DNA from: Alphaproteobacteria bacterium
GTDB taxonomy: Bacteria; Pseudomonadota; Alphaproteobacteria; RF32; CAG-239
Length of the DNA stretch: 64,000 nucleotides
Direction of reading: 5' to 3'
Assembly (NCBI GenBank): GCA_045577985.1
Contig: JAZNJJ010000028.1
Span: 133,403-197,402, forward strand
Below, piece after piece: positions 10,900-37,449 of this stretch; positions within the stretch are counted from its first letter, which is position 1, and each line of letters starts with the position of its first letter. A program made the translations under genes and the position numbers. The notes below the pieces were generated by a model. It worked only from the letters and a program-made list of their open reading frames with translations. It did not search any database and had not been told where the DNA came from.

Positions 10900-11036
10900 T
10901 GTCCGAAAAAAGGGATCCTTTTTTTCGGACATAAAAATTTTTTTAGCTTGCAATTTAATTTATTGATTTTATTATGAATTTGATTTTGATTTTTTATAAA
11001 AAAATGTCCGAAAAAAAGGATCCCTTTTTTCGGACA
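10900..11036. repeat. Paired-palindrome cassette, copy 1 (32-nt palindromes at 10900-10931 and 11005-11036)
   Basis: TGTCCGAAAAAAGGGATCCTTTTTTTCGGACA and its exact reverse complement TGTCCGAAAAAAAGGATCCCTTTTTTCGGACA, 105 nt start to start. The same 32-mer family recurs at 30037, 30144, 37313 and 37418. Confidence 0.95.
10948..10975 (+). promoter_or_regulatory. Sigma70-like promoter inside cassette copy 1, facing prepilin-like gene 1
   Basis: TTGCAA (10948-10953), 16 nt, TATTAT (10970-10975). The block CTTGCAA-N7-TATTGATTTTAT is conserved in cassette copy 2. Confidence 0.55.
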
Positions 11037-11053
11037 ATGGAAAGGAGAATATA

Positions 11054-11698
11054 ATGAATAAAATGTGTAGAACAAATAATCAATCCGGTCGTTCAATGAT
11101 TGAAATGCTCGGAGTACTCGCAATTATCGGCGTATTATCTGTAGGTGGTATTGCCGGATACTCTAAAGCGATGATGAAATTTAAAATCAATAAAACTATC
11201 GACCAAATATCACAAATGGTGGCAAATACAAGAACTCTTTATGCCAGACAAAGAAATTATGGTAATTTGAGTGGAAAAGTAGCATATAAAGCAAATTTGG
11301 CACCGAGAGAAATGTTTGAAGGAGGTTCCGGAGATTATAGTATGACCAATGCTTTTGGTGGTTATGTTTATATTTTTAGTACAGGAAGAAAAAATGATGG
11401 GGATAATAGAGCTTTCGGTATTACTGTTGACGGTTTACCGGAGGAAGCATGTATTGAATTAGTTACGCAAGATTGGGGAGACACTTCTTCATCTGGTTTA
11501 CTTTCTGTAGGTATTAATTCCGGAGTAATACTTGGGGCTTATGAGGGATGTGATGGACAATCTGCAACTTGGGAAACATATGCTTGTCCGAATGGAAATA
11601 ATGTTGCAACTCCCATGCCTATTGATGTAGCGGTAACCGGTTGTGATGCTTGTTCTTCTCTATATGGTAGTTGTTCGCTATCTTTGAGATTCTACTAA
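11054..11698 (+). CDS. Prepilin-like protein 1 (type IV pilin / pseudopilin class N-terminus)
   Basis: NNQSG|RSMIEMLGVLAIIGVLSVGGIAGY is a class III leader: a short basic leader, Gly, Glu at +5, then a hydrophobic helix. The C-terminal half is Cys-rich. AAGGAG RBS. It is a paralogue of 37468-38073. Confidence 0.7.
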   Translation: MNKMCRTNNQSGRSMIEMLGVLAIIGVLSVGGIAGYSKAMMKFKINKTIDQISQMVANTRTLYARQRNYGNLSGKVAYKANLAPREMFEGGSGDYSMTNAFGGYVYIFSTGRKNDGDNRAFGITVDGLPEEACIELVTQDWGDTSSSGLLSVGINSGVILGAYEGCDGQSATWETYACPNGNNVATPMPIDVAVTGCDACSSLYGSCSLSLRFY

Positions 11699-11712
11699 TG
11701 ATTATTGACTTC

Positions 11713-11746
11713 AAAAAAAACTCGGAATATTCATTCCGAGTTTTTT
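11713..11746. terminator. Bidirectional intrinsic terminator (prepilin-like gene 1 / proS)
   Basis: A8, then CTCGGAAT-ATTC-ATTCCGAG, then T6. Confidence 0.8.
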
Positions 11747-11767
11747 ATTTTTTGAGATTTCTATATC

Positions 11768-13285
11768 TTAGTATGATCTGGCATAAATTACATCCATTGT
11801 GGCATCTTTGCCGGTTAATAAGCATTTTCCGGTTGTACCACTTTGATCAAACGGAACACAACGAATTGTGATACGCATAGATTTTAAGATTTCTTCAGTT
11901 GCAGAATCTCCACACCATTTACCTCTTACAAAGGCTACTTTTCCCTCTTTACCATCTTCAATCCATTCGTTGGAATTAGCAAAGTATTCTTTGAATTGTT
12001 CAGGTGTTGTGATATCTGTTCTGACATTTGTATTCATTCTATCTTTTGCTCGTCTAAACATTTCATTTTGTAAAAATTCTAAACGATCAGAAATTGTAGA
12101 TACAAACTCTTCAACCTTCATAATTTTTTTGCCTTCAGGTTGACCAAAGAAAATACGCTCTTTAACCATTAGGCCATTATTTTCAATATCACGAGCACCA
12201 ATTTCACAAACAACTGGAGCACCTTTTCTTACCCATTCCCAAACTTTATCAACACTTGCTTTATCTCGTGAATCAACTTTAGTACGAATTTTTTCACCAA
12301 AAGCTGTTTTATTTTTTAATTCTGACTGAAGTTTGGTAATATACTCCATAATCTTTTGTGCATCATCATTCTTTTTAATTAAAGGAATAAATACAACCTG
12401 ATATGGAGCAATTCTTGGAGGAACAACCATGCCTTCATCATCAGCGTGGCTCATAATTACACCACCGATTAAACGTGTAGAAACACCCCATGATGTTGTA
12501 TATGCATATTCTTGTTGATTATCAGAATTTACGAATTTAATATCTGCTGATTTCGCAAAGTTTTGACCAAGATAATGTGATGTTCCTGCTTGCAAAGCTT
12601 TTCCATCTTGCATCATTGCCTCTATGCAATATGTATCAATTGCTCCCGGAAATTTATCATATTCAGGTTTCTTACCTACAATCACAGGCATTGCCAATGC
12701 GTTTTCAGCCATATCTTGATATACTTCAAGCATTTTTGTTGTTTCTTCAACGGCTTCTGGCTCGTTAGAATGTGCAGTGTGTCCTTCTTGCCACAAAAAT
12801 TCACGTGTACGCAAGAATAAACGTGGACGCATTTCCCAACGAACAACGTTCGCCCACTGATTTAACATTACCGGTAAATCACGATAGGACTTTACCCATT
12901 TTGAAAAAGAATCGGCAATGATTGTTTCACTTGTCGGACGAACAATCAATGGTTCTTCTAATGGAGATGATGGTTTTAGTTTTCCATCTTCATTCATTAA
13001 ACGAGAATGGGTTACAACAGCCATCTCTTTAGCAAAACCTTCAACATGGTCTGCTTCCTTTTGAAAAAATGATAATGGAATAAACATTGGAAAATAATAG
13101 TTTTCATGACCTGTTTCTTTTATTTGTTCATCTAAAACCCTTTGAATACGTTCCCAAATTCCATATCCCCATGCTTTAATAACCATACACCCCGGAGATG
13201 ATGAGTTTTCTGCCATATCTGCTTCAGAAACTACACTTTGATACCACTCTGGATAATTTTGTTTGCGTGTATTTTTTAACGCCAT
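11768..13285 (-). CDS. proS: Prolyl-tRNA synthetase, archaeal/eukaryote-like (Thermus-type) architecture
   Basis: 505 aa. YFPMFIPLSFFQKEADHVEGFAKEMAVVTH, RPTSETII, NQWANVVRWEMRPRLFLRTREFLWQEGHTAH, GKALQAGTSHYLGQNFA and a C-terminal ...RCVPF...ARSY ending in Tyr. Confidence 0.93.
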   Translation of the reverse strand: MALKNTRKQNYPEWYQSVVSEADMAENSSSPGCMVIKAWGYGIWERIQRVLDEQIKETGHENYYFPMFIPLSFFQKEADHVEGFAKEMAVVTHSRLMNEDGKLKPSSPLEEPLIVRPTSETIIADSFSKWVKSYRDLPVMLNQWANVVRWEMRPRLFLRTREFLWQEGHTAHSNEPEAVEETTKMLEVYQDMAENALAMPVIVGKKPEYDKFPGAIDTYCIEAMMQDGKALQAGTSHYLGQNFAKSADIKFVNSDNQQEYAYTTSWGVSTRLIGGVIMSHADDEGMVVPPRIAPYQVVFIPLIKKNDDAQKIMEYITKLQSELKNKTAFGEKIRTKVDSRDKASVDKVWEWVRKGAPVVCEIGARDIENNGLMVKERIFFGQPEGKKIMKVEEFVSTISDRLEFLQNEMFRRAKDRMNTNVRTDITTPEQFKEYFANSNEWIEDGKEGKVAFVRGKWCGDSATEEILKSMRITIRCVPFDQSGTTGKCLLTGKDATMDVIYARSY

Positions 13286-13295
13286 TTTATATCTC

Positions 13296-35992: not shown

Positions 35993-36026
35993 TAATTTCC
36001 CCGTCATTTTGCAATTCAAAAGATTA

Positions 36027-36054
36027 TTGACTTTTGGATTTATGTGATTATACT
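36027..36054 (+). promoter_or_regulatory. Candidate promoter of gene 36099-37259
   Basis: TTGACT (36027-36032), 16 nt, TATACT (36049-36054). Confidence 0.5.
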
Positions 36055-36098
36055 CTTTTTTCTATAAATTTATTATTAATTCTTAAAATAGTATAATT

Positions 36099-37259
36099 AT
36101 GAATTGGTTTAAAAGAAATTACTTTGTATGGCAGGCAAGAAGAGGAAATTTCGATGAGGCTCAACTACTAGGCCTTATTGATGTTTATGAAAATTGCGTA
36201 TCGGGGGTTAAAGATTGGAATTTTGAGCTATCTTTAGATTGTTGTTTTCAAATTCCGGGTCATTCATCAAATGATGAAATACAAAAAATACTTAAAAATT
36301 TCTTTAAGTATAATCCTTTGAACTCTATCATTTTGAGTGAAATTGATGAGGTGAAATCACCAAAAACTTTGCATTTGTTTATTGATACTATCAATAATTG
36401 TGATAGAGACCTTGACAACATTGAGCAAAAGTTTCTGCTTAATTTGAACAAGCAACTCTTTTACGGACTGAAAGTACAATTTGATGAGGAATATGAACTT
36501 TGCTTATTAGAAAGTGCTTGCGAAGAAAAAATTAATTCTTATTTGCAAAAATTTATTCTTCGCCCTAAAAGCGAAATTATGTTAGTTGATTTGGCTGAGG
36601 CTTTCTTTGATGATACCTCTCAACCATGTAACTATTCTAAGCTTTTGCAAAGTTACATCTCTTATCATCAAAAAGATAAGAAAAAGGCTTTCGCAGATGA
36701 GGACTCTCAAAATATCTTGATGAGTGCAGTAGATAATAACGAGGCTATTTCACTGCTGATTGATCAATGCACTATCCATCATGATTTTTTGAAAACCAAA
36801 GCTATCAGAACTTTGGTTGATAAAAAAAACGATAAGTTGCTTATTAAGTTTTTATCTGTGAGCTGTATCCGTGATGAGGAATTAATCGGGCATATTTTGT
36901 ACACAAATTCTAATCCTCAGATAAAAAATATGCTGACAATTTCTGGACTCAGACGTTTTTTATCGGATATGGAATTTTTGAGTGCCGAAAAGCTAGGTGC
37001 AACAGAAAAGATGAGAGCTTTTGAGCAAAAAGTTGTTAACGATATTGAAAACCTCTCATCAAATGCTGAAAAAGAGAAGCTTTTCCTTAAAAAGATATAT
37101 CCTCTTATCTATAGCGGTTCAGCCTCTCCTGCTTTGATTACTTGGTGTATGTTAAATGAAAATGCATTTCAATCACTCTATATTCCTTCAATGGCTCTGT
37201 ATATGCAAAAAATGCATACAGAAATGTGGAGAAATAAAAAAGCTGATGAACTCTTTTAA
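36099..37259 (+). CDS. Hypothetical protein
   Basis: 386-aa ORF with no domain recognised. Confidence 0.55.
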   Translation: MNWFKRNYFVWQARRGNFDEAQLLGLIDVYENCVSGVKDWNFELSLDCCFQIPGHSSNDEIQKILKNFFKYNPLNSIILSEIDEVKSPKTLHLFIDTINNCDRDLDNIEQKFLLNLNKQLFYGLKVQFDEEYELCLLESACEEKINSYLQKFILRPKSEIMLVDLAEAFFDDTSQPCNYSKLLQSYISYHQKDKKKAFADEDSQNILMSAVDNNEAISLLIDQCTIHHDFLKTKAIRTLVDKKNDKLLIKFLSVSCIRDEELIGHILYTNSNPQIKNMLTISGLRRFLSDMEFLSAEKLGATEKMRAFEQKVVNDIENLSSNAEKEKLFLKKIYPLIYSGSASPALITWCMLNENAFQSLYIPSMALYMQKMHTEMWRNKKADELF

Positions 37260-37272
37260 ATCTGAATGAAAA

Positions 37273-37305
37273 AGAGAGACCTATAAGGGTCTCTCTTTTT
37301 TGTTT
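37273..37305 (+). terminator. Intrinsic terminator
   Basis: AGAGAGACC-TATAAG-GGTCTCTCT followed by TTTTTGTTTT. Confidence 0.8.
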
Positions 37306-37312
37306 TCTAAAA

Positions 37313-37449
37313 TGTCCGAAAAAAGGGTTCCTTTTTTTCGGACATTTTTTTTATTAAAATTTGTTCTTCTCATAACGTAACATCAACAAGTTAAAAAAAT
37401 ATAAATTTAAAATCTATTGTCCGAAAAAAAGGAACCCTTTTTTCGGACA
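37313..37449. repeat. Paired-palindrome cassette, copy 3 (palindromes at 37313-37344 and 37418-37449)
   Basis: TGTCCGAAAAAAGGGTTCCTTTTTTTCGGACA and its exact reverse complement TGTCCGAAAAAAAGGAACCCTTTTTTCGGACA, 105 nt start to start. The dyad dinucleotide is TT/AA rather than AT. Confidence 0.95.

Follow-up and report, generated by a model that had tools for sequence, protein, structure and literature searches.

A 64 kb stretch of contig JAZNJJ010000028.1 (the window hereafter), which comes from an uncultured, low-GC alphaproteobacterium of the gut or rumen, was found to contain three compact cassettes in front of genes for surface structures. Each of them consists of two inverted copies of one 32-nt palindrome around a short inner segment, and in one of them, cassette 1, both orientations of this segment occur in natural assemblies of a single species with the flanks fixed. 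In our judgement each cassette is probably a miniature invertible promoter (inverton) thrown by a recombinase encoded in trans, and the cassettes most likely work as DNA-inversion on/off switches. A recombinase-type invertible promoter was the first of three readings given in a preliminary description of this DNA, and it is supported by the two orientations of cassette 1, by a promoter-like sequence in the inner segment and by the matched centres of the partner sites.

The six copies of the palindrome start at positions 10900, 11005, 30037, 30144, 37313 and 37418 of the window, and they form three pairs with start-to-start distances of 105, 107 and 105 nt. Thirteen matches to the half-site pattern were found in the window against 0.67 expected, and none of 100 shuffled sequences reached 13. 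The members of a pair are exact (pairs 1 and 3) or 97% reverse-complement 32-mers around 73–75 nt of short intergenic DNA. Differences between left and right sites are confined to position 13 (G/A) and position 20 (T/C), and in pair 3 also to the central dinucleotide (TT/AA). The polarity relative to the downstream gene is the same in all three cassettes, with the G-containing half-site outward and the A-containing half-site inward; the cassette 2 site that lies nearer the gene carries G in both halves and is thus fully symmetric. The central dinucleotide is AT in both partners of cassettes 1 and 2, and in cassette 3 it is TT on the left and AA on the right, which is the same core inverted.

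A palindrome scan of the window listed 40 palindromes, and the sequence is common to these six only, the rest being unique terminator-like hairpins; about 30 other hairpins stand at gene ends in the window, each with a unique sequence. All six copies are paired and lie 5′ of genes, and none was found at the many 3′ ends in the window. The gaps between start codon and palindrome are 15, 17, 22 and 18 nt, and the genes concerned are two PilS/Bundlin-type pilins, a hexapeptide acyltransferase and an operon of GT2 and RgpF proteins. The preliminary description had reported six copies in pairs only with these spacings, exact reverse complementarity within the first and the third pair, a unique sequence for every other hairpin, palindrome edges 15–22 nt from start codons and a location at cell-surface genes, and our analysis bears it out on each of these points.

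Searches for exact matches to the ProRS, acyltransferase and ribosomal L20 proteins retrieved contigs of the same species from other metagenomes, which were 98.3–99.8% identical to the window; exact-protein look-ups with pilin 1, pilin 2, GT2, a 386-aa protein of the window and protein P0008 gave no match. Five independent samples, with 98–99% identity to the window, spanned cassette 1: ERZ28018977 (contigs L083/L089/L111), ERZ28018841 (L085/L090), ERZ28653793 (L091), ERZ28653805 (L107) and ERZ28653715 (L110). In all five, the inner 73 nt of the cassette are the reverse complement of those of the window with two substitutions, and the flanks and both palindromes are as in the window. BLAST likewise aligned the 137-bp cassette (window 10900–11036) at 97.8–98.5% in the sense opposite to that of the surrounding 6–12 kb in the five samples. 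The promoter-like sequence of cassette 1, of the sigma-70 type, is directed towards pilin 1 in the window, and in the five samples it is directed towards the divergent acyltransferase. Where the final k-mer size of an assembler is known, it is larger than the 32-nt repeat, and the orientation of cassette 1 should for that reason reflect the reads. Logan contigs that end inside the palindrome (L092, L094 and L095) were not used as evidence, because assembly at k = 31 breaks at any 32-nt palindrome.

The putative promoter has the form TTGCAA-N16-TAT(T/G)AT, matches the consensus and is conserved between cassettes 1 and 2. The inner segments of these two cassettes are homologous to each other (alignment score 50 versus 18 ± 4.6; 0 of 2000 shuffles reached the score). 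In either state of cassette 1, the predicted transcript would cross one palindrome and then reach a ribosome-binding site within 15–17 nt. Each palindrome is predicted to fold into a hairpin of −15 to −20 kcal/mol, several copies precede T-runs and score as terminator-like when read inward, and four copies abut a ribosome-binding site. These features would suit a role at the RNA level, in which the outward copy is a terminator or insulator and the gene-proximal copy is a hairpin of the 5′ untranslated region that stabilises the mRNA or gates the ribosome-binding site. As the explanation of the cassettes this is very unlikely: the stems show no compensatory changes and the arms are identical in DNA across loci, the matched changes of the centre in partner sites would be needless for a hairpin, at a fourth cassette (described below) the site is some 110 nt away from the start codon, cassettes 2 and 3 each have a separate terminator of unique sequence in front of them, the inversion is not predicted by such a role, and Rfam holds no family that matches the palindrome, only two tRNAs being matched. 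A role at the RNA level may well exist as a side effect.

The 12-bp arms are constant in all six sites and across strains, with the sole exception of arm position 1 in L106. Variation of the sites between strains sits in the central 8 bp (position 15 in L083, position 20 in L096), and the inner segments vary by 3–10% between strains while the arms stay constant. Constant arms together with a variable centre that is matched in inverted form between partners are the pattern that strand exchange by a site-specific recombinase requires; it is well established that partner sites need matching central dinucleotides, as reported by Stark et al. in 1991. Two readings of the site are possible: a 15-2-15 layout of the hix and res site I kind, with AT or TT/AA as core, and a 12-8-12 layout of the lox kind. 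The half-site TGTCCGAAA agrees at 8 of 9 positions with each of the gamma-delta res half-sites CGTCCGAAA (site I) and TGTCCGATA (site III), which were taken from a plasmid copy of gamma-delta, and it also matches the Tn3 motif TGTCTGATA (PMC9943657). This resemblance and the AT centre, as in res site I, favour a small serine recombinase of the resolvase/invertase type, which, judged from the sites, would most likely be the enzyme. Site I of Tn3 measures 28 bp, and the non-catalytic sites II and III measure 34 and 25 bp (PMC2602789); the site here, at 32 bp, is longer than Tn3 site I, which speaks against this class of recombinase.

In the mechanism that we propose, the two inverted palindromes would be full crossover sites, each bound by a dimer of the recombinase. 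This dedicated enzyme would be encoded elsewhere in the genome and act in trans, as Mpi of Bacteroides does. Crossover between paired sites would reversibly flip the 73–75-bp segment carrying the promoter. The flip of cassette 1 would redirect transcription between pilin 1 and the divergent acyltransferase as a toggle, that of cassette 2 would turn the glycan operon on or off, and those of cassette 3 and of the fourth cassette would switch pilin paralogs. The arms are common to all sites, so one enzyme would control all loci, and crossover could also take place between cassettes whose sites have equal centres, AT for cassettes 1 and 2 and TT/AA for cassettes 3 and 4.

As probable inversion switches, the cassettes would represent a well-known type in exceptionally small form, and surface-structure targets are typical of invertons. 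The Mpi promoters of Bacteroides fragilis, which a global serine invertase inverts at many polysaccharide loci, are also several unlinked promoter cassettes with one common inverted repeat; their targets are likewise surface glycans or appendages, the recombinase lies away from the sites, and recombination between loci is possible. They belong to another phylum, and the geometry differs, since here a segment of 73–75 bp lies between 32-bp near-perfect palindromes, whereas the invertible segments of Bacteroides are about 170–230 bp long with repeats of 19–25 bp that are not perfect palindromes. Hin/hix, Gin/gix and site I of Tn3/gamma-delta res likewise have a palindromic site for a dimer, which contains A/T tracts and, at its centre, a crossover dinucleotide that partners must share, and the AT centre of cassettes 1 and 2 is that of res site I. 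However, their sites measure 26–28 bp (26 bp in hix) and not 32 bp, no accessory sites or enhancer were recognised here, and the hin segment of about 1 kb is far longer than the window segments, which have no recombinase gene inside or beside them.

Tyrosine-recombinase invertons, such as fimS/FimB-FimE of Escherichia coli and the RecV switches of Clostridioides difficile, also govern an adhesive appendage or surface protein by a promoter flip, and RecV acts at multiple loci. The inverted repeats of fimS and RecV switches are imperfect and 9–21 bp long, their segments are 150–314 bp, and fimB and fimE adjoin the switch. The loxP and FRT sites (13-8-13) resemble the window site read as 12-8-12, with constant inverted arms and a variable 8-bp spacer equal in both partners. 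In contrast to them, the central 6 bp of cassettes 1 and 2, GGATCC, are symmetric and hence have no polarity, and no tyrosine recombinase was found in the open reading frames (ORFs) scanned with Pfam and NCBIfam, that is, the genes flanking the cassettes and every window ORF without annotation. Unusual features here are the lineage of the host, the perfect palindromes of 32 bp whose arms resemble those of resolvase sites, the very short invertible segment (73 bp), the putative toggle of divergent genes and the two classes of centre. Invertons as such are common, more than 10,000 putative ones having been counted in one survey, many of them in Proteobacteria (PMC11602134).

Correia/NEMIS miniature inverted-repeat transposable elements (MITEs), repetitive extragenic palindromes (REP) and bacterial interspersed mosaic elements (BIME) resemble the cassettes in being short and dispersed, at about 140 bp, with inverted repeats at their ends, and in that they can carry promoters and form hairpins in RNA. 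The cassettes differ from these in that their ends are palindromic and the inner segment inverts in place, without target-site duplication or presence/absence polymorphism. We consider it unlikely that the cassettes are a species-specific family of this REP/BIME or MITE kind with no role in switching, in which cassette 1 would have been inverted by a rare mishap of homologous recombination, or of template switching during replication, between the 32-bp inverted repeats, and the inverted form would then have become fixed in a single lineage. Such a family would agree with the other palindromic repeats found upstream of pilin genes in relatives, with the flipped state following a pilin allele, with the lack of a recombinase in the ORFs scanned and with the frequent breaking of contigs at the cassettes, as at repeats. 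It would not account for the pairing of all window copies (the one copy outside the window lies on contigs broken inside the cassette), for the constant spacing of 105–107 nt, or for the position of all copies 5′ of a gene and not at the many 3′ ends of the window, with a conserved promoter-like sequence bracketed in cassettes 1 and 2. No direct repeat or target-site duplication was present at the borders of the three window cassettes, and no empty sites were found, the cassettes being present in every assembly that spans the loci. The constancy of the arms beside variable inner segments and the absence of the pattern from all GTDB species-representative genomes also argue against it. The REP/BIME-like mosaic that the preliminary description had offered as its third reading is thus a poor fit to copies that are paired, lie 5′ of genes and flank a promoter-like sequence; REP/BIME elements occur in large numbers, singly as well, and chiefly at the 3′ ends of genes or between convergent ones.

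Orientations as in the window were the only ones seen for cassette 2 (one other assembly, L106) and for cassette 3 (four other assemblies). The inner segment of cassette 3 has a marginal likeness to those of cassettes 1 and 2, in the reverse orientation only (p about 0.04). The 4–6 nt that flank the pilin-proximal palindrome of this cassette (window 37410–37460) read ATCTAT before it and AAGAT after it in the window, and ATATTA and ATAGAT in L096, L098 and L106, with the palindrome identical. Cassette 4 was identified outside the window, in samples that also hold this species, where an AA-type site precedes the start codon of another pilin paralog, the third (P0014), by about 110 nt; next to this site is an inner segment with homology to the one in cassette 3. 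The three contigs that carry cassette 4 are all broken within the cassette or close to it, and they show a single site. The species is judged to carry at least four putative promoter cassettes, which lie before pilin and surface-sugar genes.

Contig L093 (ERZ28654271) contains the acyltransferase gene, then one hybrid palindrome of the symmetric form, and then the leader and start codon of GT2. By its sequence it would be the junction expected from recombination at the centres of the sites at 10900 and 30037 (both AT), with inversion of the 19 kb between them. It is possible, though we regard it as doubtful, that one resolvase-like recombinase runs such ultra-compact switches (105 bp between centres) with perfect palindromes throughout the genome, the central dinucleotide setting compatibility groups; besides local flips and the toggle of pilin and acyltransferase, programmed multi-kb inversions such as that of the 19-kb L093 junction would then re-wire the ownership of promoters among surface genes.

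Two identical palindromic sites about ten helical turns apart, with a promoter between them, could also be operators that work as a pair: a dimeric regulator, either a repressor or an activator, would loop the 105 bp with the promoter, and regulation would act by binding and not by inversion. This is a quite improbable alternative, which predicts neither the inversion observed in cassette 1, nor the inverted-repeat matching of partner centres, nor the hybrid junction of L093, and no helix-turn-helix regulator was found nearby in the ORFs scanned. The recombinase could itself double as a repressor, and looping would hence be an added role more than a rival. In the second reading of the preliminary description, that of loop-forming operators, the spacing and identity of the sites hold good and the inversion is left unexplained; looping may be a second role of the same protein.

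Several results weigh against an inversion switch. No recombinase was found by Pfam or NCBIfam in the window ORFs scanned, in line with the earlier remark that none is recognisable there, and the Pfam annotation precomputed for 10 kb adjoining cassette 4 includes none. The 32-bp site exceeds the catalytic sites of 26–28 bp of known small serine recombinases, and 105 bp from centre to centre is very short for synapsis. The helical phasing of A-tracts within the inner segments was not significant and gives no bending aid to such a short synapsis; an argument from intrinsic bending was dropped for this reason. The inner segment of cassette 3 has no clear sigma-70-like promoter on either strand, and cassettes 2 and 3 showed a single orientation each, as given above. 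The pilin-directed state of cassette 1 was seen in the window only, and the five flipped assemblies have one distinct pilin allele in common; this coincidence means that a single ancient event fixed in one lineage, and not fast switching, is possible. L093 reaches just 36 nt past its palindrome, and it could therefore be an assembly chimera.

The coordinates of the cassettes and of the genes beside them are given in Table 1. The GC content of the window is 31.7%, and its Lon protease has 88% identity to that of the closest metagenome-assembled genomes from gut and rumen, most of which are labelled Alphaproteobacteria, and 75% to that of Candidatus Scatocola.

Table 1. Cassette elements and adjacent genes in the window
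Feature	Position	Strand	Remarks
Hexapeptide-repeat acyltransferase	10117..10884	-	Pfam Hexapep; divergent from pilin 1; start codon 15 nt from palindrome; predicted target of the cassette 1 promoter-like sequence in the flipped state
Cassette 1, outer site beside acyltransferase gene	10900..10931		TGTCCGAAAAAA-GGGATCCT-TTTTTTCGGACA; same sequence in five further assemblies of the species
Cassette 1, invertible 73-nt segment	10932..11004	+	Promoter-like TTGCAA-N16-TATTAT at 10948–10975 (promoter scan)
Cassette 1, site beside pilin 1	11005..11036		Exact reverse complement of 10900–10931
Type IVb-like pilin 1 (PilS/Bundlin family)	11054..11698	+	Family match; predicted target of the cassette 1 promoter-like sequence in the window state
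Glycan operon at cassette 2	23830..30014	-	GT2 (first), two RgpF, 288-aa protein, CTP_transf_3 (cytidylyltransferase) protein; family matches
Cassette 2, gene-proximal site	30037..30068		Fully symmetric form GGGATCCC; form also seen as the L093 hybrid junction
Cassette 2, inner 75-nt segment	30069..30143	-	TTGCAA-N16-TATGAT (30126 to 30099) towards GT2 operon
Cassette 2, distal site	30144..30175		32-mer match
Cassette 3, distal site	37313..37344		Centre GGGTTCCT, core TT
Cassette 3, inner 73-nt segment	37345..37417		Same orientation in four other assemblies (L096, L098, L100, L106)
Cassette 3, site beside pilin 2	37418..37449		Centre AGGAACCC, core AA; exact reverse complement of 37313–37344
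Type IVb-like pilin 2 (PilS/Bundlin-type)	37468..38073	+	Family match

Gut Alphaproteobacteria have a very large family of these pilins, with 6433 homologues at E ≤ 1e-10 and often several paralogs on one contig; in both window pilins, arginine is the residue at +1, behind the glycine of the predicted cleavage site. Between cassettes 2 and 3 lies a gene for a 959-aa protein with ankyrin and MORN repeats (window 30266–33145, minus strand), which is followed by genes for a 724-aa protein and the 386-aa protein, both without family match; all three may be host-interaction proteins. At the position of the window RgpF operon (23800–30014), one strain in ERZ28653793 has a different gene set (L109:1–3000), with a 1026-aa TOD1/GT2/WsaF protein and a hexapeptide transferase as replacement, which indicates that the glycan locus varies between strains. 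A 79-nt stretch at the tRNA-Lys gene (window 17691–17769) is duplicated in some strains of the species (L109 and L110).

Scans for TGTCCGAAAAAA-N8-TTTTTTCGGACA found nothing in GTDB species representatives or viral contigs and matched one unrelated high-GC metagenome contig. On this contig (Ga0073936_10052970, 63% GC; L001:3420–3490), three tandem tyrosine-recombinase-like ORFs are followed by a 64-nt perfect palindrome with the core TGTCCGAAAAAAG-CCTAGG-CTTTTTTCGGACA, whose arms are as in the window; the likeness is probably due to chance, but the palindrome does lie beside recombinases. BLAST of the 32-mer against plasmids and phages gave chance-level hairpins only (E of 0.06 or worse), and no relevant publication was found when the literature was searched for the site sequence. 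The Lon loci were also compared in 80 related species; none of them had a comparable TGTCCG...CGGACA site, and the search for analogous paired palindromes there gave only tRNA 3′-end duplications and REP-like units. Several relatives have, downstream of Lon, a tRNA gene whose 3′ end recurs together with a terminator 170–260 nt further on. These duplications bracket a conserved GC-rich segment (L030:13038–13300, L031:13707–13940, L042:13134–13345, L048:6751–6975, L054:11852–12150 and L055:4162–4360) and look like an integration scar or a small RNA gene. Some pilin genes of related species have an insert of about 130 nt in the leader-coding region (L020:4785 compared with L020:20807), which carries the conserved palindromic motif GGGGTTTTTGAGCGCCGTGTACAAAAAGGGTACACAAGCGAAAAAACACC (L020:20600–20830, L018:1–150 and L004:17680–17800).

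The cassettes explain why the contigs assembled for these organisms from metagenomes tend to be interrupted at pilin loci. Their small size and their sharply defined, symmetric, resolvase-like sites make heterologous testing easy, and a cassette of this kind could serve as a compact genetic switch. Next to nothing is known of the way in which the uncultured low-GC Alphaproteobacteria of the gut and rumen manage their surface. Our result indicates that type IVb-like pili and a surface glycan are varied by DNA inversion in this organism, by a logic like that of capsule switching in Bacteroides.

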